The notes beneath the pieces are model-generated. The model did not search any database. It was not told the origin of the DNA and saw only the letters and a program-made list of their open reading frames with translations. The position numbers and the translations under genes are program-made. This document shows positions 1,880-53,412 of a DNA stretch of 64,000 bases, piece by piece (the stretch's first letter is position 1; each line of letters starts with the position of its first letter). The DNA is from Patescibacteria group bacterium. Its GTDB lineage: Bacteria > Patescibacteriota > Patescibacteriia > JAHJFT01. The stretch is from NCBI GenBank assembly GCA_028710985.1, contig JAQTTB010000001.1, positions 359,397-423,396 of the forward strand, in the 5' to 3' direction.

Positions 1880-1898
1880 CTGCCTGCCGGTAGGCAGG
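1880..1898. repeat. copy of the 20-nt palindrome family (CTGCCTGCCGGTAGGCAGG), nested in the longer palindrome CCCGAT...ATCGGG (1874-1908)
   Basis: Direct read. It matches the perfect copies at 13248, 36130 and 36524 with 1-2 changes. Confidence 0.7.
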
Positions 1899-2366
1899 TG
1901 TTATCGGGACCTCCTCCAAATCTGCGTCCGCGATTGAATTGTGATGAACAAAAAAGAGATTATTTAGTCGCGGAGAGTATAATCTCAAAACAAATAATCT
2001 CTTTCTTGATCCCGAATAACAAAATGGTAATCGGGACCCTATTTTCTCTCTCCTCGTATTAAATTGTATGGTTCAAATACTTATTGATTTTTGATTTTTA
2101 ACAAGTAACTATACCATAGGCTAAGGGATTTGTCAAGACCTGCTGACAGATATTTTAGCTAAATTAAGCCTTTTATGCATAGATTAGCCAAAATATGTCA
2201 AAAACTAAAATATAAGGGCAAACAAGCGAATTTTAATGTGACTGTGGATAATCTTGGGGATAATTTTTTAAATATCCGGCTTGACGAAGCAAAAAATATT
2301 AAAAAATGGCTTATTTTAGCCATATTATCGCATCTCTTGACAAGCTCAAAGTTATACCCACAAAAC

Positions 2367-6019: not shown

Positions 6020-9000
6020 TTGAAACATATGCCAGAACCAATCACGAAAATTGCCGACTTTGACGCCATGCGGCTTCGGCTCGCTTCTCCGGAAGCGATC
6101 CGCTCCTGGTCTTACGGCGAAGTTACAAAACCCGAGACCATTAATTACCGCACCCAGAAACCGGAAAAGAGCGGCCTTTTCGCCGAAGAAATTTTTGGGC
6201 CGTCCAAAGACTGGGAATGCTATTGCGGTAAGTATAAAAAAATCCGTTATAAAGGAATTGTCTGCGATAAATGCGGCGTTGAGGTCACGCATTCCATCGT
6301 GCGCCGCGAACGCATGGGCCACATTGAACTTGCTGCGCCGGTATCGCACATTTGGTTTTTACGCGGCGTGCCGTCCAAAATCGGCACCGTGCTTGATATG
6401 TCGGCGCAGGCGCTTGAAAAAGTAATTTATTTTGGATCATTTATCATAACCGGGGTTGATGAAGGAGCAAAGCGCGCCACTCTGGAACAGCTCAAATCCG
6501 AATACAAGAGCAAGCGCAAGATGATTGAAAACGAGCATAAGCGCGATTATGAACGCGCTCAGAAAAACGCCACCGAGAAAAATATCGGCGAAAAAGAACT
6601 GCAAACCGAATTGGAAAAACTTTACAGCATTAAAGAAAATAAACTCAAGGAACTTGATAAGGATTACAGCTCTACGGATAAGGAGCTCAAGGAGCTCAAG
6701 GTTTTAAAAATTATTTCCGAAGCCGAGTACCAGGATTATTCCCTAAAATTCGGCCACATCTTTAAGGCCGGCATCGGCGCCGAGGCGGTTCACTATCTCC
6801 TGTCCAAAATCGATCTTCCGGCGACCATCAAGGCGCTCGAAGAAGAGCTCGCGAATTCCAAGGCCGCAAAGCAGGACCGCATTGTCCGCCGCATCAAGCT
6901 CATGAAGAGTCTTGAAAAAAATGGGATCAAGCCCGACTGGATGATTCTCACGGTTGTTCCGGTCATTCCGCCGGATTTGCGCCCCATGGTCGCCCTGGAC
7001 GGCGGTCGGTTCGCTACCTCGGACTTGAATGATTTATATCGCCGTGTCATCAACCGCAATAACCGCCTCAAAAGGCTCAAGGAGCTGAACGCGCCGGAGG
7101 TTATCACGCGCAACGAGAAAAGAATGCTGCAGGAAGCCGCCGACGCCCTGATCGACAACAGCGCGCGCCATTCCAAAACCGTAATTGCCGCGACCGGCAA
7201 AAAGCGCCAGCTCAAGTCGCTCGCCGACACACTCAAGGGAAAGCAGGGACGCTTCCGCCAGAACCTGCTGGGTAAAAGAATCGATTACTCCGGCCGTTCG
7301 GTCATCGTAGTCGGCCCGTCGCTCAAGATCCACCAGTGCGGACTTCCGAAGAAAATGGCGCTTGAGCTCTTCAAGCCGTTTGTGATTTCCAAACTCATTG
7401 AGCGTGAATACGTTCATAATATAAGAAGCGCGAACCGTTTTATTGAATCCGATCGTCCCGAAGTCTGGGATATTCTTGAAGAAATTATCAAAGACGCCGT
7501 GGTTCTCCTAAACCGCGCGCCGACCCTGCACCGCCTCGGCATTCAGGCATTCTGCCCGATTTTGATTGAAGGAAAAGCGATTCAGGTTCATCCCATGGTC
7601 TGCTCGGCCTTTAATGCCGACTTTGACGGCGACCAAATGGCTGTGCACGTGCCGCTCACCGTTGAATCAAAGCGTGAAGCCCGCGAAATTATGCTTTCGT
7701 CAGTCAACCTCCTGAAGCCGGCCACCGGACATCCGGTCGCGACCGCGAATAAGGATGTTGCCTGGGGCTGTTATTATATGAGTACGCTGGTTGCTCCCGA
7801 GGGACGCGAGCCCAGGGCTTTGTATGGCATTGAAGAAGCGCTGTTCGCTTACAATTCCAAAAAAATCAGCATTCGTGAAAAAATCCGCGTTCCGTTAAGG
7901 CAAGGCGGTGAGCTTATTGAAACTAATGTCGGGCGGCTTCTCATTAATCGCTGCTTCCCGGAAAAGATCCCCTACATCAATGAGACAATGGGCGTAAAAA
8001 AACTTGGCGAAGTCGTTCGCCTGTGCCTTGAATATTACGGCAACGAGCGCACTGCCCAGCTTTTAGATGATTTGAAGGAACTCGGCTTTAAGCACATCAC
8101 ACTTTCCGGATATTCCTGGGGCATGAGCGATCTGCCGATTTTGGAAAAAAAGAAAGAACTTATTACCGAAGGAAACAATCAGGTTAATCTTATTCAGGGA
8201 CAATATGATCAGGGCTTACTCACGCAGGCGGAACGCCACAGCCAGATTATCAAAGTCTGGACGGATATTAAGGAACGGGTTACCAAGCTCTCTCGCGAAT
8301 CGTTGCCTAAAGACGGCTCGGTATTTTCCATGATTGAATCCGGCGCCCGCGGTTCCTGGGGCCAGCTCACCCAGATGGTCGGCATGAAAGGCCTGGTGTC
8401 CAATCCGGTTGGCGACATTATTGAGCTGCCGGTCAAGGCGAATTTTCGCGAAGGTTTTGACGTGCTTGAATTTTTTATCTCCACCCATGGCGCGAGAAAA
8501 GGTCTTTCCGATACCGCTCTTCGTACCGCGAGTGCGGGTTATCTTACTCGTCGCCTGGTTGATGTGGCGCAGGATATCGTTGTCACTCAAGAAGATTGCG
8601 GTGAATCGGAGGGCATTCTGATTACCAAAAAAGAACAGGAAGAAATTGGTGAAGCCGTCAATACCCGTATCCTCGGCCGATTTACTCTTTCGGATATTAA
8701 GAATCCAAAAACCGGCAAGGTTGTCATTAAACGCGATACCTTGATTACCGAAGAGCACCTTCGTAAACTCGAGGGCATTGAGATTGAAGAAGTGCGCGTC
8801 CGGAGCGTCGCGACCTGCAAATTGCACCGAGGTATCTGCCAGAAGTGCTATGGTTACGATCTCGCTTATAATAAACTGGTGGAATTCGGCACCGCGGTCG
8901 GCATTATGGCTGCGCAGTCAATCGGCGAGCCGGGTACCCAGCTTACTATGAGAACATTTCACACCGGCGGTGTGGCTGGTCAGGATATCACCCAGGGTTT

Positions 9001-9924: not shown

Positions 9925-9963
9925 CGTCCCGACGTTCACTTCGTTCAGTCGGGACGATTTTTT
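9925..9963 (+). terminator. rho-independent terminator after rpoC (GTCCCGAC-loop-GTCGGGAC hairpin plus a T-run)
   Basis: cgtcccgacgttcacttcgttcagtcgggacg followed by ttttttg. The same stem family recurs at tRNA scars (see findings). Confidence 0.7.
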
Positions 9964-12964: not shown

Positions 12965-12982
12965 AGCGGGCGACCGGAATCC
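12965..12982 (-). repeat. partial copy of the tRNA-Gly 3' end (T-loop through acceptor: agcgggcgaccggaatcc)
   Basis: Identical to 13076-13093 of the intact tRNA-Gly up to the T-loop. It lies 100 nt downstream of the gene. Confidence 0.7.
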
Positions 12983-13024
12983 CTGCCTTCGCCCCTCGAT
13001 AAGCTCGGGGCTACGGCAGGCAGG
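12982..13024. repeat. palindrome-family variant: CCTGCC + 27-nt internal segment + GGCAGGCAGG
   Basis: cctgcc-ttcgcccctcgataagctcggggctac-ggcaggcagg. The termini equal the arms of the 20-nt palindrome. Confidence 0.55.
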
Positions 13025-13075
13025 AAACCGGCATTCTATTTCGAGGATCCCGATCGGGTTGTTTAAAAAATTATC

Positions 13076-13147
13076 AGCGGGCGACCGGAATCGAACCGGC
13101 ATCTTCAGCTTGGAAGGCTAACATAATAGCCATTATACGACGCCCGC
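13076..13147 (-). tRNA. tRNA-Gly (anticodon TCC)
   Basis: Manual fold: GCGGGCG acceptor, anticodon loop CTTCCAA, T-arm GCCGG-TTCGATT-CCGGT, discriminator U, no encoded CCA. Leader and trailer form an extended inverted repeat (aaaaaattatca / tgataatttttt and ttcgaggatccc / gggatcctcgaa). Confidence 0.85.
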
Positions 13148-13222
13148 TGATAATTTTTTAAGGACTCTTACGGGCGGGATCCTCGAAAATTCAACCTCGC
13201 TTCGCTTCGGGAATTTTCGGGA

Positions 13223-13248
13223 GAAGGCTAACGTAATAGCCATTATAC
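13223..13248 (-). repeat. partial copy of tRNA-Gly positions about 10-35 (D-arm to anticodon loop), joined directly to the 20-nt palindrome
   Basis: gaaggctaacgtaatagccattatac matches 13113-13138 with 1 mismatch. The copy ends within the anticodon loop. Confidence 0.7.
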
Positions 13249-13267
13249 CTGCCTGCCGGCAGGCAGG
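13248..13267. repeat. 20-nt perfect palindrome CCTGCCTGCCGGCAGGCAGG
   Basis: Exact self-complementary 20-mer. Confidence 0.9.
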
Positions 13268-14277: not shown

Positions 14278-14340
14278 TGGTCGGGGATGAGAGACTCGAA
14301 CTCTCGACCTTCCCGACCCAACGTCGGGACGCGCTACGAA
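14278..14340 (-). pseudogene. tRNA-Pro-derived fragment (D-stem 3' strand through CCA) with the anticodon arm replaced by a GTCCCGAC-GTTGG-GTCGGGA hairpin; no 5' acceptor strand
   Basis: TAGCGCG...AGGTCGAGAGTTCGAGTCTCTCATCCCCGACCA is identical to the intact tRNA-Pro. Upstream sequence cannot pair with the acceptor 3' strand. Confidence 0.7.
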
Positions 14341-14354
14341 TTATTTATTACAGA

Positions 14355-14395
14355 TGGTCGGGGCGGTGAGATTTGAACTCACGATCTCATGCTCC
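14355..14395 (-). pseudogene. 3' half of a split tRNA-Pro: GGA-GCATG-AGATC-GTGAG-TTCAAAT-CTCAC-CGCCCCG-A-CCA
   Basis: Pairs perfectly with the 5' half at 14510-14544 (see findings). Confidence 0.75.
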
Positions 14396-14509
14396 CCCGC
14401 CTGCCGTCGCCTTGGTCGGGGATGAGAGACTCGAACTCTCGACCTCCTGCTCCCAAAGCAGGCGCGCTACCAACTGCGCTAATCCCCGGCTCAGGCCATG
14501 GCGGGCAGG
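14396..14509 (-). mobile_element. 114-nt insertion splitting a tRNA-Pro in its anticodon loop; it carries a complete tRNA-Pro(TGG) and ends in CCCGCCTGCC...GGCGGGCAGG
   Basis: Boundaries defined by where the two tRNA halves stop pairing. Mobility is inferred. Confidence 0.45.
14413..14488 (-). tRNA. tRNA-Pro (anticodon TGG), CCA encoded
   Basis: CGGGGAT-TA-GCGC-AGTTGGTA-GCGC-G-CCTGC-TTTGGGA-GCAGG-AGGTC-GAGAG-TTCGAGT-CTCTC-ATCCCCG-A-CCA. C1:G72 and A73 are Pro identity elements. Confidence 0.9.
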
Positions 14510-14544
14510 CAAAGCATGCGCCTTAGCCGCTAGGCCACGCCCCG
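14510..14544 (-). pseudogene. 5' half of the split tRNA-Pro: CGGGGCG-TG-GCCT-AGCGGCTA-AGGC-G-CATGC-TTTG
   Basis: Acceptor, D-arm and anticodon-stem 5' strand. Complements 14355-14395. Confidence 0.75.
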
Positions 14545-14767: not shown

Positions 14768-14844
14768 TGGTGGGCGCACGTGGACTCGAACCACGGACCT
14801 CGTCATTATCAGTGACGCGCTCTAACCAGCTGAGCTATGCGCCC
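14768..14844 (-). tRNA. tRNA-Ile (anticodon GAT), CCA encoded
   Basis: GGGCGCA-TA-GCTC-AGCTGGTTA-GAGC-G-CGTCA-CTGATAA-TGACG-AGGTC-CGTGG-TTCGAGT-CCACG-TGCGCCC-A-CCA. This is the classic tRNA that follows 16S in rrn operons. Confidence 0.9.
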
Positions 14845-15092
14845 AATATGTCATGGCTGATTCTTGCTTGTAAAAAGCGCCTCCCAAATCCGGTCTTAAA
14901 ATATTTTTCTCGCTTAAGGGCAAGTTCTTTGCTCAGGCAGGCTTCATAATATACCAGTTTCAATGGACGGCGTATTCGCGTTGAGTCCACTTTGCCCAAC
15001 GCATGCTCTTGGCAGCGTTTTTTTAAATCATCCGTAAAACCGATATAAAATTTCTTATCTTTTAAACTTAATAAAACGTAGGTAAAAAACAT
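14835..15092 (-). CDS. GIY-YIG nuclease family protein (85 aa)
   Basis: YVLLSLKDKKFYIGFTDDLKKRCQEH matches the GIY-YIG motif. Its 3' end overlaps the tRNA-Ile 5' end by about 10 nt. Confidence 0.7.
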   Translation of the reverse strand: MFFTYVLLSLKDKKFYIGFTDDLKKRCQEHALGKVDSTRIRRPLKLVYYEACLSKELALKREKYFKTGFGRRFLQARISHDILGA

Positions 15093-15107
15093 TATTCGCG
15101 AGTCCTC

Positions 15108-15488
15108 CTATGCACCCTTGGTTTCCAGGGTGACATTGATATTGGATGGATTGAATTTGTCCTGTATGTATTCTTTGATTTTATTCGGAGTATCCGAGCT
15201 GCCGCAGGTCAGAATGTCGATTGAGCAGTAGCCGTATTCTGGCCAGGTATAAATCGCGGCGTGGGATTCTTCCAGTATCGCGACTGCCGAGACCCCCTGG
15301 TGTTTAGTCAGCTCGCCGTTGAAAATTTTGTGATGGTAGTCAACAAAATTTACCAAATGTAAGCCGGCTTTGCTTATGGCAGATGTCAGAGTTTCTTTGA
15401 TTAGATTTCGGTCATTGAGCAATTGTTCGTTGACCCCATAGAACTCGGCGTAAAGATGATAGAGCCGAGGCGTATAGAGTTGTTCCAT
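15108..15488 (-). CDS. speH: S-adenosylmethionine decarboxylase proenzyme (class 1b, pyruvoyl)
   Basis: The self-cleavage motif ILEESHAAIYTWPEYGY is present. Size is about 126 aa. Confidence 0.85.
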   Translation of the reverse strand: MEQLYTPRLYHLYAEFYGVNEQLLNDRNLIKETLTSAISKAGLHLVNFVDYHHKIFNGELTKHQGVSAVAILEESHAAIYTWPEYGYCSIDILTCGSSDTPNKIKEYIQDKFNPSNINVTLETKGA

Positions 15489-15677
15489 TTCTTTATCCTC
15501 AATATTGGCGCGGCGGAAAGGCCCGTCAATATAAAAAAGACTATAAATTATGTAGCTACAGTATATTAATTTTCTGTAAGGATCGCAAGAGACTTTGTCC
15601 CTGTGGATACATAATTTAAAGCCTTCTCAACTTAGAAAGTGATAGGATTTCCTTCTTTGGGATATTTACTCCCTAGA

Positions 15678-21091: not shown

Positions 21092-21195
21092 AATGTACTC
21101 TTCATGAACCCACCATCCCAATGATGGCGGACTCATGTGAGTGCGCGACTGATTCAGGGGATGAATCATTATGTCGCGCAAGTTGGTGTGAAAGA
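21092..21195 (-). promoter_or_regulatory. 104-nt conserved leader, copy B (upstream of the lipoprotein gene); contains a GCGCGAC...GTCGCGC hairpin and a short uORF whose stop overlaps the main ATG
   Basis: About 98% identical to 22342-22445. Each copy sits directly 5' of a minus-strand Cys-rich gene. Confidence 0.6.
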
Positions 21196-21200
21196 GCAAT

Positions 21201-22304
21201 CTATTTATTCTGTGCTGCCTTTTTCTTAGCACGGCGTTCACGCGCGTAGCAGGTGCCGCAGACAGGTCCTTGGTCATTCCGTATTTTCACCGGCCTTACC
21301 TTGTGGCAGCAAATGCATTCTTCCTCAGACCGCTTGTAGCAGTTTACGCAGACAGGTCCTTGGTCAGTCCGCTGATTAACCGGCCTTACCTTGTGGCAGC
21401 AAATGCATTCTTCCTCAGGCCGCTTGTAGCAGTTTACGCAGACAGGTCCTTGGTCAGTCCGCTGATTCACCGGCCTTACCTTGTGGCAGCAAATGCATTC
21501 TTCCTCAGGTGGTTGGTAGGCCTTATAATAGCAACTTGCGCATATGGGGCCGTCATCAGTACGTTTATGAACAGGCTGCTCTTTATGGCAACGAACGCAT
21601 TCTTCTTCAGGCGCTCGGTAGCATCTATCACAGACAGGGCCGTCATCTAAGCGCTTCCTAACTGTTCTTACCCGATGGCAGAGTATGCACTTTTCTTTAG
21701 GGCGTAGGTGAGTCTTTCTGTAGCAGGCATCACAGATTGGACCCTCGTCCGTGCGCTGAACCACGGGCCTTACCCTATGGCAACAAATGCATTCTTCTTC
21801 CGGGCATTTATAGCAACAGTCACAGATTGGACCCTCGTCCGTGCGCTGAACCACGGGCCTTACCCTATGGCAACAAATGCATTCTTCTTCCGGGCGTTGG
21901 TAGGTTTTATTGTAGCAGCTTGCGCAAATGGGGCCATCGCTCGTGCGCTGCAAAACCGGCCTTACACTGTGACAGCGAACGCATTCTTCAAGGGCCGTAT
22001 GGTAACACTTGCCGCAGACTAGGCCGCCGTCCATGCGTTGAAAATTAATTTCGCTCCTTTCGTTGCAGACGCAGCAAATATCAATTTTCCTGTGGGACTC
22101 CAGGCCGGCGCATTGCCGACAGACGAGCGCGCCGGTTTGATTGAAATATTTTAGCGCTCGCAGATTATTGCAGTCCGGACATTTGCTCCGGGGCTTTGGC
22201 TGGCCTTGGCCCTCGCGTCGTGTTGGCTCGTGCATGCGCACGCAGTCTTCGTCTCCACAAACCGGGCAAATATGCCCGTGCGTTTCAGTGTGATTCTCGC
22301 ACAC
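21201..22304 (-). CDS. tandem zinc-ribbon-like repeat protein (367 aa; about 10 repeats of C-x-C-C-H-x10-GP-x-C-x2-C-Y)
   Basis: The protein repeats EEECICCHKVRPVNQRTDQGPVCVNCYKRP. The underlying 99-bp DNA repeats at 21289-21486 are near-identical. Probable GTG start. Confidence 0.65.
   Translation of the reverse strand: MCENHTETHGHICPVCGDEDCVRMHEPTRREGQGQPKPRSKCPDCNNLRALKYFNQTGALVCRQCAGLESHRKIDICCVCNERSEINFQRMDGGLVCGKCYHTALEECVRCHSVRPVLQRTSDGPICASCYNKTYQRPEEECICCHRVRPVVQRTDEGPICDCCYKCPEEECICCHRVRPVVQRTDEGPICDACYRKTHLRPKEKCILCHRVRTVRKRLDDGPVCDRCYRAPEEECVRCHKEQPVHKRTDDGPICASCYYKAYQPPEEECICCHKVRPVNQRTDQGPVCVNCYKRPEEECICCHKVRPVNQRTDQGPVCVNCYKRSEEECICCHKVRPVKIRNDQGPVCGTCYARERRAKKKAAQNK
21289..21486 (-). 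repeat. two near-identical 99-bp tandem repeats (plus diverged copies up to about 22000) inside the Zn-ribbon repeat gene
   Basis: ccggccttaccttgtggcagcaaatgcattcttcctcag... repeated with 1-2 mismatches. Confidence 0.85.
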
Positions 22305-22341: not shown

Positions 22342-22445
22342 AATGTACTCTTCATGAACCCACCATCCCAATGATGGCGGACTCGTGTGAGTGCGCGACT
22401 GATTCAGGGGATGAATCATTATGTCGCGCAAGTTGGTGTGAAAGA
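22342..22445 (-). promoter_or_regulatory. 104-nt conserved leader, copy A (upstream of the Zn-ribbon repeat gene)
   Basis: See 21092-21195. Confidence 0.6.
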
Positions 22446-24431: not shown

Positions 24432-24941
24432 TTACGCCTTTGGCTCCTCGGCGGGTGCTTCTGCCGGGGCCGGAGTTTCTGCCGGAGCGGGCGTTTCTGC
24501 AGCCGGAGTCGGAGTTTCCGGTACTGGTGCCGGGGTCTCTGCCGGAGCGGGCGGTTCGGGTTCCGGAGTCCCGACCGCTGTCGGGACTGCCGCGGCGGCG
24601 GCGGCTTCAGCCTTGGCTTTATCGGCTTCAGCCTTGGTTTTGGCTTCGGCAATTCGGGCGCGGCGCCGGTCCGATACTTTAACGCTCTTGCGTTTTTTGC
24701 CGGAAATAATTCCCTGGCTCACGAGCAAATTGTGCACCGTGTTTGAAGTCTGGGCGCCCCGCTCAATGTAATATTTGATGCGTTCAATATTGAAATTAAT
24801 GACTTTTTCTTTGGCGCGGGGATTATAGTTTCCCAGATTTTCAAGAACCCGGCCCCAGGGATCGCGGCTTTTTTCCGAAATAACCAGGCGGTAGGTCGGC
24901 TGTTTTACCTTGCCAACTCGCGCAAGTCGGATATGAAGCAT
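24432..24941 (-). CDS. rpsP: 30S ribosomal protein S16 with an Ala/Pro/Glu-rich C-terminal extension
   Basis: MLHIRLARVGKVKQPTYRLVISE... is a typical bS16 N-terminus. Confidence 0.9.
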   Translation of the reverse strand: MLHIRLARVGKVKQPTYRLVISEKSRDPWGRVLENLGNYNPRAKEKVINFNIERIKYYIERGAQTSNTVHNLLVSQGIISGKKRKSVKVSDRRRARIAEAKTKAEADKAKAEAAAAAAVPTAVGTPEPEPPAPAETPAPVPETPTPAAETPAPAETPAPAEAPAEEPKA

Positions 24942-25017: not shown

Positions 25018-27261
25018 TCAAGCCTTGGCCGCGGCTTCCTCGAGCTTCACGGAAAGCATTTTTGAAACCCCGTCATCGCCCATGGTGACGCCGTAAAGAA
25101 CGCGCGCCACGTCCATGGTCGCGCGGTTATGCGAGATCACGATGAACTGGGTCTTCTTTGAAAGCTCATCAATGATTTTTGAGAATTTTATTGAGTTGGA
25201 CTCATCCAGCGCGGCGTCAACCTCGTCTAAGACGATAAACGGCGACGGATTGTTGGTCATTATCGCGCAAATCAGGGCAATCGAAGTAAGCGCGCGCTCG
25301 CCGCCGGAGAGCGCGTTGATGGATTTCAGGCGCTTGCCCGGGGGAGTGGCCTGAATCTCCACGCCGGTGATGATTTTTTTCTTGGCCGCGGGCTTTTCCT
25401 CAAACGGCATTTCTTCGGGCGCCTCTTCCCCGACGTTCCGCTCCGCGGAAGTCGGGGCCTCGGCCTCTTCCGGCTCCTCGTCGGTTATTTCTTCATTCAC
25501 CTGGATAAGTCGCGCTTCGCCGCCGCCGAATAGGAGTTTAAAATATTTTTCAAATTCGCGGTTCAGGTTGCGGAACGCGCTTTCGCTCTGGGCTTTTATT
25601 TTTTGGTCAAGCTCGCCGATGATTTGCTCGAGCGAATCAATCGCTCCGGAGAGATCCTTGGTTTGGCCTTCGAGATATGTAAATCGTTCCTGCGTCTCGT
25701 TGTATTCGGCGAGTGTCTCGGGATCAATCGCGCCGATGAGGTCAAGCTGATGTTTGAGCCGCGCCATCTCCGGATAGATCGCTTCGGGTGAAACCGATTC
25801 GGTCGGCACGTAAGATTTCATTTCTTCGGCGCGCTCGGCCAGATCCTGCCGCATTTCCTGTTCAAGCGATTCTCGTTTTGTCTCAAAGCGGGCTTGTTCT
25901 ATCTTCACGTCGTTCAGCCGCGACTCCAGATCGTGCACGCGTACGCCTTTTTCCTGCAGTTCGCGCTGAATGGAAAAAAATCGGCCGCGTTTTGCCTCTT
26001 CGTCTTTATTGAAATTGGTAATTTTTTGCTGGACCGCGGAAATTTTGTTGTCAATCGCAATGAGTCCCTTGGCAATCTCTTTTAGATCTTTTTCCATGCC
26101 CGGGTCGAGCGCCATCGCCTGGTCAGGCTGTTTTAGTTTGGCGAGCAGGTCTTTGATTTTTTTTGCCAGGGTCCGGATTTTTTCCGGCGCATCTCCGCCT
26201 GCTTCAATCGCGCGCATCGCCTCTTCGCCCAGGGCGTCAATCTCTTCAAGTTCGGACAGGATCATGGCCACGGGCACGGGCGGCGCCTTTTTTTCCTTGA
26301 GGCTCGCGAGTTCGATTTTTCTCTGCAGATCAAACTGCTTTTCGCGCAGAGCGGATTTCTCGTTCATGAGCTGCTGGTAGTCGTTCTGCAGGCCGGAGAA
26401 CACGTCGCCCCGCGGCTCTTCGCGCTCCATTTTGGAAAATTCGGACTGCAGGGTCTCAAGCCGGCTTTTGGCGTCAATGAGTTCCTCGTCAATCACTTTG
26501 TAATTCCGTTCCTGGATTACGATTTTTTCGGAAATATCTTTCCATAATGTGCCGTAATATTTTTTCTGGAGTTCGCCGAGCTCGGCCTCGGTTTCTTCGC
26601 GCCGTTCCAGCCTTTTCGCGAGCCGGGTGAGCGAGCGGAGCCGCGGCTCGATTTCCTGCATCACAAGCAATGCCTGGTTCAGATTTTCGCGGCTTGCTTC
26701 AAGTTTATTAACCGACGACTGTCTTTTTATTTGATATTGTTTGACCCCGGCCGCTTCATCAAAAAATTCTTTGCGCTCCTGCGGGGTAGCGACCAGGATA
26801 TGATCAACCATGCCCTGGCCGATGACCGCGTAGCTCCGCTGGCCGAAGTTTGCCTGCGCGAGCAAGAGCTGGATGTCCTGGAGACGCGCCTTGTTGTTGT
26901 TGAGGTAGTATTCGGTCACGCCGTCGCGGTAGAGCCGCCGCGTGATCACGAGTTCGGAATAATCAATATCCGCGGCGCGGTCTTCGTTATTGAGATACAG
27001 CGAAACCTCGGCAAAGCCGGCGCGGCTGCGCTTCGGCGTGCCCGAAAAAATCACGTCTTCGCTTTTCTTGCCGCGAAGAAGCTTGAGGCTCTGCTCGCCC
27101 ATTGCCCAGCGCACCGCGTCCGCGATGTTGGATTTGCCCGAGCCGTTCGGCCCGACAATCGCGGTGGTGCCCTTTTTGTCGCCGGCGGGCGCTAGGAATT
27201 CCAGGGTGGTTTTGAGCGCAAAGGTTTTAAAGCCTTGGAGCTCCAGTCTCTCTAAAAACAT
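25018..27261 (-). CDS. smc: SMC-family chromosome-segregation ATPase (short form, 747 aa)
   Basis: N-terminal Walker A GPNGSGKSN, C-terminal signature LSGGE and Walker B VLDEVDAALD, and long coiled coils. Confidence 0.8.
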   Translation of the reverse strand: MFLERLELQGFKTFALKTTLEFLAPAGDKKGTTAIVGPNGSGKSNIADAVRWAMGEQSLKLLRGKKSEDVIFSGTPKRSRAGFAEVSLYLNNEDRAADIDYSELVITRRLYRDGVTEYYLNNNKARLQDIQLLLAQANFGQRSYAVIGQGMVDHILVATPQERKEFFDEAAGVKQYQIKRQSSVNKLEASRENLNQALLVMQEIEPRLRSLTRLAKRLERREETEAELGELQKKYYGTLWKDISEKIVIQERNYKVIDEELIDAKSRLETLQSEFSKMEREEPRGDVFSGLQNDYQQLMNEKSALREKQFDLQRKIELASLKEKKAPPVPVAMILSELEEIDALGEEAMRAIEAGGDAPEKIRTLAKKIKDLLAKLKQPDQAMALDPGMEKDLKEIAKGLIAIDNKISAVQQKITNFNKDEEAKRGRFFSIQRELQEKGVRVHDLESRLNDVKIEQARFETKRESLEQEMRQDLAERAEEMKSYVPTESVSPEAIYPEMARLKHQLDLIGAIDPETLAEYNETQERFTYLEGQTKDLSGAIDSLEQIIGELDQKIKAQSESAFRNLNREFEKYFKLLFGGGEARLIQVNEEITDEEPEEAEAPTSAERNVGEEAPEEMPFEEKPAAKKKIITGVEIQATPPGKRLKSINALSGGERALTSIALICAIMTNNPSPFIVLDEVDAALDESNSIKFSKIIDELSKKTQFIVISHNRATMDVARVLYGVTMGDDGVSKMLSVKLEEAAAKA

Positions 27262-30509: not shown

Positions 30510-30791
30510 TTAATGAAGGAGGGAAAATGCTTTTTCCTCTTGTTTTATACAAAAAAACGCCCATTTGGGTAATCCGCTCTCACGACAAGCATGGGGATCT
30601 TTCCAAGGCAGCTTCTGGCGCAAGCTCGAACTCGCCTTAATAAGATCTTCTTGAGCGCGGATTACTTTTGCGGGTGTTTTTTATTTTGTATTTCAGCCAA
30701 TTGATGTTCCCCCTCCTTTGTAAAGGAGGGGGACAGAGCCCGCCCGCCACGCCTGAGGCGTAGCCGATAGCGGGCGGGGGTGTCTTTTTTT
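30510..30791 (+). ncRNA. candidate about 280-nt transcript: either an sRNA or the mRNA of a 37-aa ORF (30527-30640, RBS AAGGAGGG), ending in a strong terminator
   Basis: Promoter, RBS, ORF, two GC hairpins (ccccctcc-tttgtaa-aggaggggg; gcccgcccgc...gcgggcgggg) and a T8 run. Confidence 0.35.
30738..30791 (+). terminator. rho-independent terminator (10-bp GC stem with a nested hairpin, T8 run)
   Basis: gcccgcccgc-cacgcctgaggcgtagccgata-gcgggcgggg-gtgtctttttttt. Confidence 0.7.
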
Positions 30792-34505: not shown

Positions 34506-34540
34506 CAAAAAAACCTCAGAACGTTTTTGTTGCTCTGAGG
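34506..34540 (-). terminator. rho-independent terminator, paralogous to the tRNA-Glu terminator, followed by a tRNA-3'-end-like scar (tttcttggtagcgcg, 34541-34556)
   Basis: CCTCAGA...TCTGAGG stem plus a T-run in minus sense. Compare 36325-36350. Confidence 0.55.
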
Positions 34541-34563
34541 TTTCTTGGTAGCGCGTGAAAAGC

Positions 34564-34594
34564 AAAAAAACTCCTACTCATAATAAGTAGGAGC
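34564..34594 (-). terminator. rho-independent terminator after the 34609-35376 gene
   Basis: gctcctact-tattatg-agtaggag plus ttttttt in minus sense. Confidence 0.6.
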
Positions 34595-34608
34595 CGCGTG
34601 TGCACGAT

Positions 34609-35376
34609 TTAAGTGAAGAGCTGAAGAGCTTTGATGAGGTATGCCTCGGCCATATGCCAGTCGATTGGATCCAAAGCGTTACCGCTTGGACGAAGTCGTG
34701 CCTGTGCGTCAATGCTCAAATCGGGAAATACTTTGATGAGCGGTTCGACCAAATGAATGGTTTCCGGCCCAAGTCCGCCCGCAGCCCCGATGCCAAACAT
34801 CGGAAAGCGTTCCCTGATCGCTCGAGCGAATGGTATTAGATCAACGGCATTCATGCCGAGACCCTTTCCCATACTCTTGTCGAGTAGAACGCGGTGTATC
34901 GCACCTTTGTAGTCGCCAAGTTTCTTGATAACAGCTTGCGGATTATTATTGACTTCCTTCAAAGCATTTTTTCCAATCTGGAGGACGACTTCGATGTGCT
35001 TGCGTGAGGCATGGACACCATCTATGATCTGATTCGGATCGGGCCAAGTCATGTCGAGTTGCAGAGCGTGCAGGCCGGCACCACCGCAAGAGATGGCGTC
35101 GGCAAGGCTTTTCCAGAGGCCGGAGTTGTTGCCATAGTCCACGTAGTGCAGGCAGTTGTATGCTTCATCCGAAGAGAAGATGTCGGCGACTGTTTCCTTC
35201 GGCGGAAAAGTATTCTGCCACTTGCTCGGAATGCCGTGAAGCGTCTTGTAGCTCATCATAACGCCGACATGCAACTTGCGCGTTGATCCAATTGGCAGAT
35301 GAGCGGCGAATATCCTGGACATGCTTTGAACTTGCTCGAATTTTGTAAAATCAGTAATGCCGATGTATGGGTTCAT
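34609..35376 (-). CDS. hypothetical enzyme (255 aa), possibly a TIM-barrel/FMN-binding fold
   Basis: Only weak resemblance (a Gly-rich IGAAGGLG segment near the C-terminus). The family is unresolved. Confidence 0.5.
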   Translation of the reverse strand: MNPYIGITDFTKFEQVQSMSRIFAAHLPIGSTRKLHVGVMMSYKTLHGIPSKWQNTFPPKETVADIFSSDEAYNCLHYVDYGNNSGLWKSLADAISCGGAGLHALQLDMTWPDPNQIIDGVHASRKHIEVVLQIGKNALKEVNNNPQAVIKKLGDYKGAIHRVLLDKSMGKGLGMNAVDLIPFARAIRERFPMFGIGAAGGLGPETIHLVEPLIKVFPDLSIDAQARLRPSGNALDPIDWHMAEAYLIKALQLFT

Positions 35377-35510
35377 TGCGTACCCCTTTCGTTTAAAAGG
35401 ACATTTTGTATTAAAAAATCCTATCCTATTTATGCTAAAAAGTCAAGGAAAAAGCCTTTATAATAAAAAAAGAGCAGTTTTAAGACTTGCTCGGGTCATA
35501 AGTCATTAAA

Positions 35511-36002
35511 CTATATATCATCCTCTTCCACGTATTGGGGGCGCAGAGAGCAAACTTCCTCCTCCCTCTCTCGCCTTTCCGCTTCATACCATGCCTGCGC
35601 CGCCGGATGGTTGGGGAAGATATCTTCGGACCCGCATGTTGGGCAAACATGCGCCTCGGCATCGGCCACGGGGATTGTCTTTCGGTCCCTGTAAGCAAAT
35701 TCGCACTTACAACTTTCGCACACCCACGGCGCATCCGGCTCGTGAGAGCGGGGATCGGAGTCAGGATGTATCCACTCCTGTGCCTCTTTTTCCCGCGCCC
35801 GGACACGGGCTTCATTGATTTCGTTTTGCTGCGCCTCGAGCCGCGACTTCTCCCGGCGCAGCTCCTCGAGCTTGTTCTCGGGAATGCCCGGCTCTTTGAG
35901 GATAATCGGGATTTCCTTGAGCCGCGAATCAATGAGTGTAAGTTCAAATGCAAGGTCCTGTTCCGAGGGCTGACCTTCGGGTTCCTTATTCTCAGCCGAC
36001 AT
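35511..36002 (-). CDS. hypothetical coiled-coil protein with a C-terminal CxxC...CxxC zinc ribbon (163 aa)
   Basis: WVCESCKC...HVCPTCG. Confidence 0.55.
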   Translation of the reverse strand: MSAENKEPEGQPSEQDLAFELTLIDSRLKEIPIILKEPGIPENKLEELRREKSRLEAQQNEINEARVRAREKEAQEWIHPDSDPRSHEPDAPWVCESCKCEFAYRDRKTIPVADAEAHVCPTCGSEDIFPNHPAAQAWYEAERREREEEVCSLRPQYVEEDDI

Positions 36003-36026
36003 GTTTTCCTCCTTTTAAGTATCTGC

Positions 36027-36054
36027 ATTTTACTGAATATTGCTAGAATGTCAA
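36027..36054 (-). promoter_or_regulatory. sigma70-like promoter (TTGACA-16-TAAAAT, minus sense) for the 35511-36002 gene
   Basis: Reverse complement of tgtcaa at 36049-36054 and atttta at 36027-36032. A GGAGG RBS follows. Confidence 0.5.
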
Positions 36055-36105
36055 TAAACAAAAAATCCCCCGGTTCTCGTGGGGAATTCCGTAATTGCTC
36101 AAATT

Positions 36106-36170
36106 TAAATTTAAAATTGAATTAAAATTCCTGCCTGCCGGCAGGCAGGTAAAACTTAAAATTTAAAATT
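36106..36170. repeat. AT-rich 41-bp unit (as at 23196-23240) carrying the 20-nt palindrome at 36130-36149: the 'filled site'
   Basis: tttaaaattgaattaaaatt-CCTGCCTGCCGGCAGGCAGG-taaaacttaaaatttaaaatt. Confidence 0.85.
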
Positions 36171-36181
36171 GCCCGAAGGGC

Positions 36182-36232
36182 TGGTAGCCCGTAGGGGAAT
36201 CGCCCCGACGTTTCGCTTCGCGAAAGTCGGGG
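36182..36232 (-). repeat. tRNA-Glu 3'-end copy (T-loop to CCA, 36182-36202) fused to a 30-nt hairpin CCCCGACGTTTCGCTTCGCGAAAGTCGGGG (36203-36232)
   Basis: tggtagcccgtaggggaatcg equals the 3' end of the intact tRNA-Glu. The hairpin core is identical (reverse orientation) to 52339-52366. Confidence 0.75.
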
Positions 36233-36353
36233 TACCGGGGCGCGGAGTTTATCTCGATGTATATCGGGACCTCTCGCGCCCGTTCGATTCCCTAAATTTA
36301 ATATTATTAAACATACAAAAAATCTCAGACATTTATCCGCGTCTGAGGTTTCT

Positions 36354-36428
36354 TGGTAGCCCGTAGGGGAATCGAACCCCTATTACCACATTGAAAGCGT
36401 GGTGTCCTAGCCATTAGACGAACGGGCC
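36354..36428 (-). tRNA. tRNA-Glu (anticodon TTC), CCA encoded, followed by its own terminator (36321-36350)
   Basis: GGCCCGT-TC-GTCT-AATGGCTA-GGAC-A-CCACG-CTTTCAA-TGTGG-TAAT-AGGGG-TTCGATT-CCCCT-ACGGGCT-A-CCA. Confidence 0.85.
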
Positions 36429-36510
36429 ATGAAATATGTTTTTAAATATGTTACCACATTGTCCGCCAAAGGCGGATGCGCCTCGCCTGTCCGCCTCTGG
36501 CGGAGGCGCA

Positions 36511-36565
36511 AAAGCGTGGTGTCCCTGCCTACCGGCAGGCAGGCTAGCCATTAGACGAACGGGCC
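36511..36565 (-). repeat. copy of the tRNA-Glu 5' half (positions 1-35, ending in the anticodon loop), interrupted after position 21 by the palindrome (36524-36543)
   Basis: GGCCCGTTCGTCTAATGGCTA-[CCTGCCTGCCGGTAGGCAGG]-GGACACCACGCTTT compared with the intact gene. Confidence 0.8.
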
Positions 36566-40876: not shown

Positions 40877-40930
40877 ATTCCTCCCTGTCTTGCCGAAGCC
40901 CCGACCGCAGTCGGGACGAAGGCAGACTCC

Positions 40931-44051: not shown

Positions 44052-44192
44052 ATTATTAATTAGCTTAGCTCATTTTGGCTGGGATGAGCCCCCGTCGCCC
44101 GGGACGGGGATATTAAATAAGTAAAAAAAGTATATACTATATTAAATATCTTGGCAAGAGGCGGCCGCGTTGATATAATATATATAGAATAT

Positions 44193-49679: not shown

Positions 49680-49698
49680 TTAATTGAATGTCTGTGTT

Positions 49699-50394
49699 AT
49701 GAATGAGAATTTATCGGAATTGCAGGAGCGTCTGGGGATAAAGTTTAAAAACGAAGATTTTTTGCGCCAGGCCATGGTGCATCGTTCATATTTAAATGAG
49801 CATCCGGATTTTCCGCTTGGCCACAACGAGCGTCTTGAGTTTTTAGGAGACGCGGTTCTTGAACTCGTGGTTACAAAACATCTTTACGAATCATATCAAA
49901 ATCCCGAGGGGGAGCTTACCAATTGGCGGGCTGCACTGGTGAACGCGCATATGCTCGCGACTCTGGCGCGTGAACTCAATATCGAAGAGTTTCTTTATCT
50001 TTCGCGCGGTGAGGAAAAAGACAACGAGTCAAAGGCTCGGCAGTATATTTTGGCGAACGCTTTTGAGGCTTTGATCGGCGCGATTTATCTCGATCAAGGC
50101 TGGGACGCTTCGGACGAATTTATCATGAAGAGCCTGATGATTAAGCTTCCGGAAATATTAAAATTAAAATTATATCTTGATCCAAAGAGCCGTTTTCAGG
50201 AAGCGGCGCAGGAGCAATTCGGCACTACGCCGACCTACCGAGTCGTTTCCGAAACCGGTCCGGACCACGACAAGCATTTTCGCATTGCCGTGCTGATTGG
50301 CGAAGATATTGTCGCCGAAGGCGACGGCTCTTCAAAGCAGGAGGCGCAGATTGAAGCCGCGAGAAACGCTCTTGAGGAAAAAGGCTGGTCGTAA
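49699..50394 (+). CDS. rnc: ribonuclease III
   Basis: ERLEFLGDAVLELVV signature and a C-terminal dsRBD. Confidence 0.9.
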   Translation: MNENLSELQERLGIKFKNEDFLRQAMVHRSYLNEHPDFPLGHNERLEFLGDAVLELVVTKHLYESYQNPEGELTNWRAALVNAHMLATLARELNIEEFLYLSRGEEKDNESKARQYILANAFEALIGAIYLDQGWDASDEFIMKSLMIKLPEILKLKLYLDPKSRFQEAAQEQFGTTPTYRVVSETGPDHDKHFRIAVLIGEDIVAEGDGSSKQEAQIEAARNALEEKGWS

Positions 50395-52023: not shown

Positions 52024-52142
52024 GCGCCTCCTCCTTTGTAAAAAAACGATTTTTCTCTATCTTACTTCTCGCAAAGTATATTGTCAATGCCTTGAATATT
52101 TGATTTATTTATGCTATTATACGTCAAAACATCCAGGCTCGT

Positions 52143-52214
52143 GCCCCTGTAGTGAAATGGACATCACGGCAGTCTTCGGAACTGCAATTTCAGGTTCGAA
52201 TCCTGGCGGGGGCA
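52143..52214 (+). tRNA. tRNA-Arg (anticodon TCG)
   Basis: GCCCCTG-TA-GTGA-AATGGACA-TCAC-G-GCAGT-CTTCGGA-ACTGC-AATT-TCAGG-TTCGAAT-CCTGG-CGGGGGC-A. Confidence 0.85.
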
Positions 52215-52336
52215 AGAGCGCGGGTGTTTTTTAATATTTTGGGTTCTGCGCCCGAGGCGCACTCGCCTTCGGCGAGGATTCCCTCTGGGCGCATTTTGTA
52301 ATTGACGTGGTTCGCCCCGACGCTTCGGTCGGGGGC

Positions 52337-52403
52337 GTCCCGACTTTCGCGAAGCGAAACGTCGGGACGAATCCTGGCGGGGCAAGAGCGCGGATGTTTT
52401 TTA
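52337..52403 (+). repeat. hairpin GTCCCGACTTTCGCGAAGCGAAACGTCGGGAC (52337-52368) fused to a 35-nt copy of the tRNA-Arg 3' end plus downstream flank (52369-52403, matching 52198-52233)
   Basis: gaatcctggcggggcaagagcgcggatgtttttta versus gaatcctggcgggggcaagagcgcgggtgtttttta. Confidence 0.8.
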
Positions 52404-52478
52404 TTTACATTCCGCTCCGGCTATGCTAATATGTCCGCAAAACGTTCCTTGGAAATAATAAGAAAAAAGGAGGTCGCG

Positions 52479-52835: not shown

Positions 52836-53132
52836 CTACATTATCTCCTCTTCCCTGTCGGAGTGCGACGGGGCATCGGGGTGCTCACGGCGCTCCTCTT
52901 CGGCCGCCTTCCAGTGCCCCTCGAACTCGGCGGAGAGTGCGGCTTCATCTTGCGGCACCCCGTTCTTGCCAGAGAACGGGTACATGGAGATGTAGGGATT
53001 CTTGTGGAAACTGACCGGACCGGCTCGCTCTAGAAAGCGGCGTTCGGCGGGGCTCATATCTTCTAGGGGAGAGAGCGGACGGCGCAGTTCTTCTTCGGTC
53101 GGCCGATAGCGTTTCTCTTGGTCGTTCGGCAC
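52836..53132 (-). CDS. hypothetical protein (98 aa), paralogous N-terminus MPNDQEK
   Basis: Shares an about 35-nt RBS-start region with the next gene. Confidence 0.4.
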   Translation of the reverse strand: MPNDQEKRYRPTEEELRRPLSPLEDMSPAERRFLERAGPVSFHKNPYISMYPFSGKNGVPQDEAALSAEFEGHWKAAEEERREHPDAPSHSDREEEIM

Positions 53133-53153
53133 GGTTTCCTCCTCCTTAATTTA

Positions 53154-53357
53154 TCAGCGGCGGTTACGCCTCAGAATCAATTCGGCGTCATGCATGGAAA
53201 TCTTTCCGCGCTTGAAACGCAGGTCGTGATAAACTTCCGGACCCAGTTCTCGGAGCAGGAACTCATTGGCTTCGCGGTGATCATGACCCGCTCGATCCAT
53301 CCCTGCTTCAAGTGGCTGACAGTGCAGCTCGCCCGTTTTCTCTTGGTCGTTCGGCAC
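53154..53357 (-). CDS. hypothetical protein (67 aa), paralogous N-terminus MPNDQEK
   Basis: See 52836-53132. Confidence 0.35.
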   Translation of the reverse strand: MPNDQEKTGELHCQPLEAGMDRAGHDHREANEFLLRELGPEVYHDLRFKRGKISMHDAELILRRNRR

Positions 53358-53412
53358 GGTTTCCTCCTTTGTAAGTTACGAAAACTTAATAGGTAAAGCG
53401 CAAAAAGTCAAG

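Follow-up and report, generated by a model that had tools for sequence, protein, structure and literature searches.

What places one and the same short GC-rich hairpin directly in front of the broken-off 3′ ends of two different tRNA genes? The question arises in a 64-kb stretch of a Patescibacteria group genome (contig JAQTTB010000001.1; hereafter the window, and the part of the source genome to which all window counts refer), which contains six tRNA genes and one 16S rRNA gene. The 28-mer CCCGACTTTCGCGAAGCGAAACGTCGGG occurs in exact form at 36204–36231 on the minus strand, close to tRNA-Glu, and at 52339–52366 on the plus strand, close to tRNA-Arg; with its closing pair included, the hairpin, referred to here as hairpin A, is 30 nt long (36203–36232 and 52338–52367, respectively). 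A preliminary description made from the letters alone had pointed to this identical core at two tRNA scars, and had proposed either a mimic of a tRNA end or a mobile hairpin that targets tRNA stem-loops. On balance we lean towards a form of the second proposal, namely that small mobile palindromes have colonised displaced remnants of tRNA genes.

The hairpin family and its members

Hairpin A belongs to a real family that exceeds chance expectation. No second exact copy of the 28-mer was expected from shuffled sequences, and none was expected of the copy with three mismatches that is found at 25429–25456. The stem pattern CCCGAC-N3-24-GTCGGG matches eight times (starts at 9928, 14312, 24570, 25429, 36204, 40900, 52316 and 52339) where 0.04 matches are expected, and a blind count of all 6-bp stems returned only two GC-rich ones as over-represented in the window, CCCGAC/GTCGGG and CCTGCC/GGCAGG. 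Several such families occur in Patescibacteria and are told apart by their stems: A with CCCGAC, X with CCCGAT, B with CCTGCC, E with TCCGCC and F with CCCGCC. Hairpin A has the outer stem (T/C)CCCGAC/GTCGGG(A/G), a single bulged C, an inner stem of 3 bp that varies in sequence and, at the apex, CGC-GNA-GCG, in which GC-GNA-GC is presumably an exceptionally stable DNA mini-hairpin. The Glu copy folds by itself as DNA, at −12.5 kcal/mol with a z of −4. A bias tying the strand of the GNA apex to the positive GC skew of the window was considered and rejected, as copies lie on the plus and minus strands with no consistency.

The family is also concentrated around tRNA genes. With tRNA zones taken as the sequence ≤300 nt from a tRNA gene (4.8% of the window), four of the eight family A sites fall inside them (P=3e-4), as do eight of the 13 sites when families A and B are pooled (P=3e-8). 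This contradicts the explanation that the preliminary description had raised against itself, namely common terminators with no enrichment beside tRNA fragments.

A degenerate form of the hairpin pattern was scanned against public collections of genomes, metagenome contigs and viral contigs. Matches in low-GC sequence come from Patescibacteria (including Komeilibacteria and Magasanikiibacteriota) and from two Bacteroidia contigs, and the viral contigs gave no match to the pattern; the source species was not among the genome matches. The GC-rich matches (16 of 19 in genomes and 14 of 21 in metagenomes, with a GC fraction of 0.65–0.72) fall in coding DNA and have non-complementary inner triplets, L026 being the sole exception; they were rejected as family members, being chance hits in coding DNA, and serve as a negative control. 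Eleven copies can be aligned without gaps, and in this alignment 98.6% of the cells are paired, the apex is GC-GNA-GC throughout and four pairs have changed on both sides, a degree of covariation that was reached by none of 500 shuffles. The compensating pairs are the three inner ones and the closing one, the inner stem being TTT/AAA, TTC/GAA, CTC/GAG, ACT/AGT or TCC/GGA in different copies, and such variation is confined to the low-GC matches. That there is no family at all, and that ordinary GC-rich terminator hairpins resemble each other by chance, is hardly credible in view of these results. Short GC-rich hairpins are indeed common behind bacterial genes, and the 16 genome matches in GC-rich coding DNA do look like chance, but chance does not account for identity at 28 of 28 positions in two loci, for eight matches in place of 0.04, for compensatory change in the low-GC matches alone or for the strong enrichment at tRNA loci.

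At both the Glu and the Arg locus the hairpin, as had been described, directly precedes a copy of the tRNA 3′ end; the copy starts at C56 of the T loop. The Glu hairpin (CCCCGACTTTCGCGAAGCGAAACGTCGGGG on the minus strand, 36203–36232) abuts CGATTCCCCTACGGGCTACCA at 36182–36202 on the same strand, which runs from C56 to CCA and is identical to 36354–36374. The Arg hairpin (52338–52367, plus strand), whose palindrome reaches 52336–52369, is followed by a 37-nt copy (52368–52404, plus strand) that comprises the T loop to 3′ end, the trailer and a T run, with CGAATCCTGGCGGGG and, downstream of it, CAAGAGCGCGG together at 52368–52393; its pairing with the tRNA leader is better than that of the first copy. 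A short relative, CCCCGACGCTTCGGTCGGGG (52315–52334, plus strand), lies immediately on the 5′ side of the Arg hairpin and is preceded by GGTTCG, the 5′ half of the T loop of an old tRNA-Arg copy. The opposite orientation of the two identical hairpins, as previously reported, holds in window coordinates; with respect to the tRNA genes, of which Glu is on the minus strand and Arg on the plus strand, their orientation is the same.

Members of the family are also found away from tRNAs. A relative after rpoC (9926–9955, plus strand) has an A run before it and a T run behind it and is terminator-like. Two copies lie within protein-coding genes on the minus strand and use the same reading frame: that in the SMC gene (25428–25457) is in frame, encodes APTSAERNVG and has three changes, two of them compensatory, and a short relative (24567–24588) encodes VPTAVGT in the low-complexity C-terminal tail of ribosomal protein S16. 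The SMC segment, about 11 residues in a variable acidic loop, is absent from the closest homologue (P0121, 74% identity). Between two co-directional genes, a compound hairpin at 40887–40927 (plus strand) carries a short hairpin A within the loop formed by GTCTTGCCGAAG...CGAAGGCAGAC, and nesting of this kind recurs at 12982–13024, at 36462–36510 and, away from tRNAs, at 1873–1909 (plus strand), where a hairpin X (TCCCGAT...ATCGGGA) contains a hairpin B in its loop. A further hairpin B, CCTGCCTGCCGGCAGGCAGG, is located downstream of the Glu remnant at 36130–36149. The membership proposed earlier was thus right for the copies at rpoC, Pro, Glu, Arg and 40896–40918, while 44083–44105 was removed, having a different stem (CCCCGTC/GACGGGG); three members had been overlooked, namely the two coding copies at 24567–24588 and 25428–25457 and the short relative at 52315–52334.

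Several of these features would suit elements that act in transcripts, either as terminators or processing or stability signals, or, joined to the remnant, as a tRNA-like 3′ module read by tRNA enzymes. The rpoC copy has its flanking A and T runs, the 40887–40927 copy stands between two cistrons, stem pairing is kept by compensatory changes, and one relative (L048, described below) conserves the module that follows tRNA-Glu. A hairpin with a T run behind it is nevertheless found only at rpoC. The Glu and Arg copies have none directly behind them and are not called by the terminator scan, which finds no terminator in the Arg region; the Glu copy, moreover, lies downstream of the tRNA's own terminator. 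When the fused modules were folded as RNA and as DNA, only the hairpin formed, followed by an unstructured tail, with no T-arm mimic, no acceptor 5′ strand and no acceptor or T-arm helix. The pairing of the terminal GGGG with CCCCT, which had been suggested to imitate a T arm, does not appear in the predicted fold, in which GGGG takes part in the stem of the hairpin. Even at E≤1, matches to Rfam are limited to the intact tRNAs, and ARAGORN calls nothing at the units of hairpin plus remnant, so that the idea of a tRNA-end mimic was given up and a tRNA-like RNA was rejected. As copies also occur in both orientations, within coding sequence and within pseudogenes, we regard a function in transcripts as improbable. 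In the reading that we prefer, the unit of hairpin, T loop, acceptor strand and CCA is what is left, after displacement, of the 3′ end of an earlier tRNA-Glu or tRNA-Arg gene, with a palindrome at its former T loop, and in annotation such units should not be labelled tRNA-like genes.

Broken tRNA genes in the window and in other genomes

Except for Phe and Ile, all tRNA loci of the window have partial copies of the same tRNA with GC-rich hairpins nearby. Read along the minus strand, the Glu locus comprises a promoter-like site (36608–36580), a 5′ pseudo-copy, the intact gene, its terminator, a spacer of ~110 nt, hairpin A and the 3′ remnant. The pseudo-copy (36451–36565, minus strand) covers tRNA positions 1–46 just downstream of the promoter-like site and matches the gene with 100% identity in three blocks, separated by a hairpin B at 22/23 (36524–36543) and by a 49-nt block of nested hairpins at 35/36 (36462–36510). 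Its position between promoter and intact gene is expected if a promoter-less tRNA segment landed in an older gene.

Measured from C56, the direct repeats are 22 nt long at Glu and 37 nt at Arg, where they extend beyond the tRNA end, and they surround inserts of around 130–150 nt. A third copy at the Glu locus, GCTACCAAGAAACCTCAG (34535–34552, minus strand), comprises the tRNA end and the start of the terminator and forms an 18-nt direct repeat with 36343–36360. These two repeats enclose a 1.8-kb segment (34553–36342) with two open reading frames (ORFs) that has no counterpart in the syntenic HSP20–tRNA-Glu–tsaD region of relatives. The ORF at 34609–35376 has no Pfam match and that at 35511–36002 has a weak, uninformative match to a zinc ribbon. 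The segment looks like a small island inserted at a tRNA end.

These repeats bring up the possibility that the remnants are scars of the attL/attR type, left by small integrative elements that used a tyrosine integrase supplied in trans to recombine with the T loop of the tRNA. The hairpin would then belong to the element's arm beside the core site and would not be an independent element. The T loop, where the junctions lie, is reportedly the classic crossover position for tRNA-targeting integrases in the sublocation classes that Williams set out in 2002. In addition to the repeats around the two inserts and the third repeat with its 1.8 kb and two ORFs missing from relatives, the GGGG-CGATT-CCCC segment looks like a copy of a T-arm core, and L048 conserves the tRNA-Glu insert, the remnant matching each lineage's own tRNA in the manner of an attR. 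We nevertheless judge integration to be unlikely, if the most serious of the alternatives. The Pfam scan found no integrase, recombinase or transposase among the ~60 window ORFs that it covered, the hairpin gave no match in viral contigs, and the Glu and Arg inserts have only the 28–30-nt hairpin in common. Integrase scars would also leave unexplained the insertions at 10/11 of the D stem with intact flanks (see below), the nesting, the in-frame SMC copy and the occurrence of both orientations. An origin from a prophage or other integrative element was rejected on the lack of viral matches and of a recombinase among these ORFs and on the uninformative Pfam results for the two ORFs between the Glu repeats.

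The TsaD of the window is 100% identical to a protein of a Patescibacteria metagenome-assembled genome in NCBI, on a contig of about 744 kb, and exact protein matching otherwise returned just two 1.5-kb Logan contigs, both identical to the window; the nearest relatives have ~70% TsaD identity. The orthologous tRNA-Glu locus, between the HSP20 and tsaD genes, can be compared in three relatives. In L043 the gene is clean, with a simple terminator and neither fragments nor hairpins. L046 is built like the window, with a 5′ pseudo-copy followed by the intact gene, its terminator, hairpins and a 3′ remnant from the T loop; the hairpins themselves are different and sit at other positions, for example at 10/11. 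L048 shares several parts with the window: the terminator, a T-loop piece in inverted orientation (AGGGGAATCGAAC), two blocks (CGGGYGCGAGAGG and GCGCCCCGGTACC) and the 3′ remnant, which in L048 matches that locus's own tRNA-Glu. At the site of hairpin A, L048 has a 19-nt non-palindromic stretch, so that hairpin A is absent from an orthologous locus. From the comparison of the three loci we conclude that such events recur at tRNA-Glu in different lineages, and from L048 that at least some of the insert predates the hairpin copy or exceeds it in size. The tRNA-Glu gene (36354–36428 in the window) also differs in its orientation relative to tsaD, being on the same strand in L043 and L046 and on the opposite strand in L048, and AGGGGAATCGAAC (36282–36293 in the window) comes after the terminator in the window, L046 and L048. 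The differing orientation and the inverted T-loop piece hint at inversions with breakpoints in the T loop.

The tRNA-Gly and tRNA-Pro loci are broken in related ways. At Gly, on the minus strand, a 3′ remnant starting at G57 of the T loop (12965–12981) is fused to a compound B-type hairpin (12982–13024), the whole spanning 12965–13024, and a 5′ pseudo-copy covering positions ~10–35 (13223–13267) is truncated at 35/36, with a hairpin B (13248–13267) in place of the 5′ strand of the acceptor stem. At Pro, also on the minus strand, a partial copy from position ~19 to CCA (14278–14337) has its anticodon stem swapped for TCCCGAC/GTCGGGA in a hairpin at 14311–14329, so that the replacement of the anticodon arm noted in the preliminary description is real. 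Next to it, an older tRNA-Pro(TGG) gene (14355–14544) is split at 35/36 of the anticodon into halves at 14510–14544 and 14355–14395. Between G35 and G36 of this older gene stands the intact tRNA-Pro (14413–14488), enclosed in an imperfect inverted repeat, CCTGCC..CGCC/GGCG..GGCAGG, that pairs over 31 nt at 74% (bracket 14396–14509). When joined, the outer halves give 76 nt that ARAGORN calls as tRNA-Pro(tgg). Inverted repeats that extend the acceptor stem also flank tRNA-Gly (21 nt, 100%, 13039–13188) and tRNA-Arg (22 nt, 82–86%, 52126–52230 and 52379–52400). An additional outer pair of 14 nt at tRNA-Gly is perfectly inverted, and repeats of this kind around intact tRNAs recur in L022 and L035. 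RNase III, encoded at 49684–50394, was raised as a possible processor of these flanking repeats.

In other genomes the hairpin lies inside or abuts tRNA-derived sequence in six of the nine low-GC loci fetched by the hairpin pattern alone, and in eight of 11 when the Bacteroidia are counted. The insertion points concentrate at 10/11 and 22/23 of the D stem, at 32–36 of the anticodon loop and at 55–58 of the T loop. A two-hairpin module between G10 and C11 is found in a 5′ fragment of tRNA-His upstream of the intact gene (L030), in a full-length tRNA-Ala(CGC) gene (L035) whose uninterrupted paralogue tRNA-Ala(GGC) presents the empty site TTAG|CTCAGC, in an old tRNA-Ile gene (L022) that is in addition split at 32/33 by a cassette with 19-bp inverted repeats and an intact tRNA-Ile, and in a full-length tRNA-Asn gene (L042) that also has a 90-nt insertion in the T loop. 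The module at 10/11 occurs in either orientation (L030 and L022 versus L035). A 3′ remnant of tRNA-Pro (L039) carries a module at C56, and a second T arm at this locus is divided by two hairpins. Insertions or junctions in the T loop are thus present at Glu, Arg and Gly of the window and in L039, L042, L046, L058 and L006, the last of these being one of the two Bacteroidia contigs in which the hairpin A core occupies the T loop of a tRNA-Leu 3′ remnant (L006, 4130–4157; L040, 11492–11519). As Bacteroidia belong to a different phylum, the element or process is wider than Patescibacteria. In the Komeilibacteria locus L008, which involves no tRNA, hairpin A (7395–7422) stands at the break of a truncated and diverged 5′-end duplicate of a heavy-metal-binding (HMA) gene, with the intact gene just downstream, and hairpin-ended partial gene duplicates consequently extend beyond tRNAs. 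The insertions are precise and no target duplication is visible at them. The bases on their 5′ side vary (TAG, GGTTA, CTTT, GGTT and TTCG); a fixed target tetranucleotide was considered, since TAG precedes many D-stem insertions, and was rejected, as the sites in T loops and anticodon loops differ.

Removal of the inserts in silico gave tRNAs that ARAGORN recognises in five cases (Pro, Ala, Asn, Ile and Val). Because excision restores perfect tRNAs, one may ask whether some of the interrupted genes still function, with the modules as intervening sequences that are taken out of the transcript, comparable to the non-intron insertions of rRNA genes in the Candidate Phyla Radiation (CPR), which are likewise short and lie at the tops or bases of stem-loops. 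The tRNA-Asn gene of L042 would suit this, being full-length with two insertions and having no intact copy on its 3.5-kb contig, as would the RNase III gene of the window. However, an intact copy of the same tRNA adjoins in the window and in L022, L030, L035, L039, L046 and L058, most interrupted copies are truncated or substituted, and cleavage that is not followed by ligation would destroy the tRNA. The Rfam scan of the window found no intron family, and group I and group II introns were rejected on this result and on the nature of the inserts, which are hairpins of 20–60 nt. Removal from functional transcripts appears to us quite improbable, even more so than a role of the hairpins as RNA signals.

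GIY-YIG nuclease genes and the proposed order of events

A gene for a small nuclease adjoins several of these tRNAs. In the window an 85-aa GIY-YIG ORF (14835–15092, minus strand; PF01541, E 3e-14, above the gathering score) has its stop codon formed by U8-A9-G10 of tRNA-Ile. In L020, two pseudo-tRNA-Pro copies, one broken at the anticodon loop and the other with a hairpin in place of the T arm, are each followed by an ORF of ~84 aa and then by an intact tRNA-Pro, the stop codons of the ORFs falling inside the 5′ end of the tRNA. The two L020 ORFs and that of the window are all GIY-YIG (PF01541, E about 1e-14). Among the loci fetched, a GIY-YIG ORF of 78–93 aa adjoins a tRNA gene in 10 of 11, including those of the window, L020, L050, L058, L059, L062 and L067, and in three ORFs the stop codon lies within the first 10–15 nt of the tRNA. 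Fragments of the old tRNA 5′ part are located upstream of the ORF in L020, L058 and L067. In L058 the ORF begins at the anticodon-loop break of an old tRNA-Val and is followed by an intact tRNA-Val and then by the rest of the old gene, and in L067 the ORF and an intact tRNA-Lys come after a fragment of an old tRNA-Lys (positions 1–19) that has a hairpin at 10/11. Homologues of the ORF share 65–79% identity over several CPR phyla, are much more conserved than TsaD and are mostly found on short contigs, which is what would be expected of a mobile multi-copy gene. The link between the GIY-YIG genes and the hairpins is circumstantial.

The window ORF is part of the spacer of ~830 nt between the 16S rRNA gene and tRNA-Ile (14845–15676), together with a 126-aa ORF in whose translation we take a motif to be S-adenosylmethionine decarboxylase-like. 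The rRNA genes are unlinked here, as no 23S rRNA gene is located behind the tRNAs. Two strong intergenic hairpins are present at 30708–30780. The second, CCCGCCCGCCACGCC...GGCGGGCGGG, belongs to a family that flanks GIY-YIG ORFs in L050, L058, L059, L062 and L067 and is also found in the D loops of pseudo-tRNAs at the same loci.

We propose that the hairpins behave as non-autonomous insertion elements, which would enter precisely, without visible target duplication and in either orientation, as single hairpins or as two-hairpin modules. Their sites would be the tops or feet of stem-loops, both in tRNAs (D, anticodon and T arms) and in other hairpins (within the loops), and occasionally tolerant loops of proteins, where they insert in frame. 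Entry at such single-stranded tops and feet could take place as folded single-stranded DNA, the palindromes moving as stem-loops, or as templated filler copied in during the repair of breaks. As insertion into the sole working copy of a tRNA would be lethal, hairpins are seen only in redundant tRNA copies. These would come from a second process, in which a resident tRNA is split or displaced by a segment that carries an intact tRNA inside inverted repeats and that is accompanied, in related loci, by the small GIY-YIG gene, whose product may make the breaks. The 5′ part of the old gene would stay behind upstream and its 3′ part, starting in the anticodon or T loop, would come to lie downstream, as remnants that probably have no function. 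An arrangement of displaced tRNA parts of this kind is also present in L022, L035 and L058. A copy that happens to have a T run behind it, as at rpoC, may double as a terminator. The mobile hairpin directed at tRNA stem-loops that had been suggested at the outset is in this respect supported by the enrichment, by the insertion sites and by the in-silico excisions, mobility itself being our interpretation of these.

A number of observations weigh against this proposal. No enzyme that could move a hairpin was recognised among the ~60 window ORFs, and neither a mobilisation intermediate nor a population-level empty site was seen. The copy count covers 64 kb of the source genome, and relatives at ~70% TsaD identity are too distant for gain or loss to be dated. 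The 5′ flank of the Glu hairpin is not recognisably tRNA, which makes this hairpin a marker of a junction and not a simple insertion, and the conservation in L048 of the module from tRNA-Glu to the remnant would allow for a function or for a larger mobile unit. Should hairpin A be just one subfamily that prefers tRNAs, the association with tRNAs among the public hits may be overstated. Finally, a local hidden Markov model search of the hairpin-bearing loci found GIY-YIG ORFs in the window and L020 only, and no GIY-YIG gene is located next to the Glu or Arg locus of the window.

More tentatively, and with clearly less confidence than in the colonisation of tRNA remnants, we suggest that Patescibacteria carry an undescribed kind of structure-seeking mobile DNA and that their tRNA genes are serially overwritten by cassettes of nuclease plus tRNA. 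Any stably stemmed DNA might then be copied into another stem-loop, at its single-stranded top or foot, with no target duplication. This would cover the GC-rich hairpins of 20–60 nt whose apex is GC-GNA-GC and, equally, entire tRNA genes in which the acceptor stem is extended. GIY-YIG nucleases encoded on tRNA 5′ ends would supply the breaks, displaced arms would fill with nano-palindromes, and the same process could explain the short non-intron insertions in CPR rRNA genes. The compact genomes of Patescibacteria are usually called streamlined and their rRNA genes are known for insertions; the present finding suggests that tRNA loci are a further hotspot, in which left-over arms gather palindromes that also reach protein-coding genes. 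If this finding is confirmed, it provides a testable model of tRNA gene turnover and horizontal spread in Patescibacteria, accounts for the assembly breaks that are frequent in CPR metagenome-assembled genomes and for their odd 'pseudo-tRNA' calls, and extends selfish palindromes of the GC-cluster or REP type to a new lineage with unusual, structure-defined targets. The literature searched, whose coverage is incomplete and thus no proof of novelty, contained no description of these hairpins or of GIY-YIG/tRNA cassettes in CPR.

Two repeats of other kinds were also found in the window. A 104-nt direct repeat (21092–21195 and 22342–22445, 99%) encloses the ORF 21201–22304, which has no Pfam match and contains internal repeats of ~192 nt (21245–22018) with 64–70% identity. 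Two 42-nt direct repeats (53112–53153 and 53337–53378), 90% identical and 225 nt apart, end in CCTCC, which resembles a ribosome-binding site on the plus strand, and are positioned upstream of small unannotated ORFs.

Comparison with known insertions and palindromic elements

Scars left by integrases resemble the loci described here in that tRNA 3′ segments from the T or anticodon loop are duplicated downstream of an intact gene, and direct repeats of the 3′ part from C56 are indeed present. The window differs in having neither an element body nor, among the ~60 ORFs scanned, an integrase, inserts of only ~100–250 nt, 5′ pseudo-copies upstream and, in the related loci, D-stem insertions with both flanks. 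Miniature elements derived from IS200/IS605 have hairpins at both ends and make no target duplication, which agrees with the two-hairpin modules and the insertion sites seen here, but they insert 3′ of one fixed tetra- or pentanucleotide; they were rejected because the 5′ bases of the present insertions vary and no TnpA was found among the ~60 window ORFs scanned. Free-standing GIY-YIG homing endonucleases can also adjoin their target genes, an example being SegB in a tRNA cluster of phage T4. The likeness lies in a small ORF beside tRNAs, with an adjoining tRNA copy that seems to replace the resident one. The ORFs found here differ in that they encode the nuclease domain alone (78–93 aa), are chromosomal in bacteria, are accompanied by a whole replacement tRNA and are known as sequences only. 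In fungal mitochondria, GC clusters occur together with mobile endonuclease ORFs, which duplicate the ends of genes. The nearest parallel within the same bacterial group is provided by CPR rRNA genes, in which stem-loops carry, at their top or base, short insertions that have no ORF and are not introns, and in which further insertions encode GIY-YIG proteins (PMC11270868). Those insertions are in 16S and 23S genes that stay functional, and the report does not mention tRNA genes (PMC11270868).

The hairpins have the palindromic form and the size of repetitive extragenic palindromic (REP) sequences, with eight copies in 64 kb, two of them coding, and the Pfam scan of the ~60 window ORFs found no RAYT (Y1 HUH transposase). 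Rickettsia palindromic elements (RPEs) are about 100–150 nt long and confined to Rickettsia, and we know of no reported preference of theirs for tRNA arms. Two of them, RPE-4 and RPE-6, are listed among the CGTC REPs (PMC3733652). REP sequences and REPINs are alike in being dispersed, imperfect, GC-rich palindromes of 20–40 nt that are often paired, are sometimes located in genes or used as terminators, and have stems held by compensatory change (PMC3733652). In CGTC families the stems are of 8–9 bp and start with A/T pairs and the loops are of 4–5 nt (PMC3733652), whereas the window hairpins have stems that start with C/G pairs and lack an unpaired GTAG or CGTC tag at the end, CGTC being situated within the stem (the C bulge plus GTC; CGTCCCGAC in the Arg copy). 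Membership in the CGTC or GTAG REP families was rejected on the lack of these defining tag and stem features (PMC3733652). The sites differ as well, generic extragenic space in the case of REPs and stem-loops of tRNA gene remnants here.

The GC clusters, double-hairpin elements and sponge hairpin elements of mitochondria are likewise tiny GC-rich palindromes in compact, AT-richer genomes (PMC4478555, PMC2800124). In the portions of these reports drawn on here, they occur sporadically between relatives, merge and nest, are tolerated in rRNA or variable coding regions and have no known dedicated transposase. They are organellar, and the same portions do not note a preference for tRNA stem-loops or tRNA cassettes (PMC4478555, PMC2800124). 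Putative target duplications are reported there for GC clusters (PMC4478555, PMC2800124), in contrast to the hairpins described here, for which none is seen. Judged by these likenesses, REP, RPE and mitochondrial GC-cluster elements would be the closest kinds to which the hairpins at the broken tRNA genes are akin.

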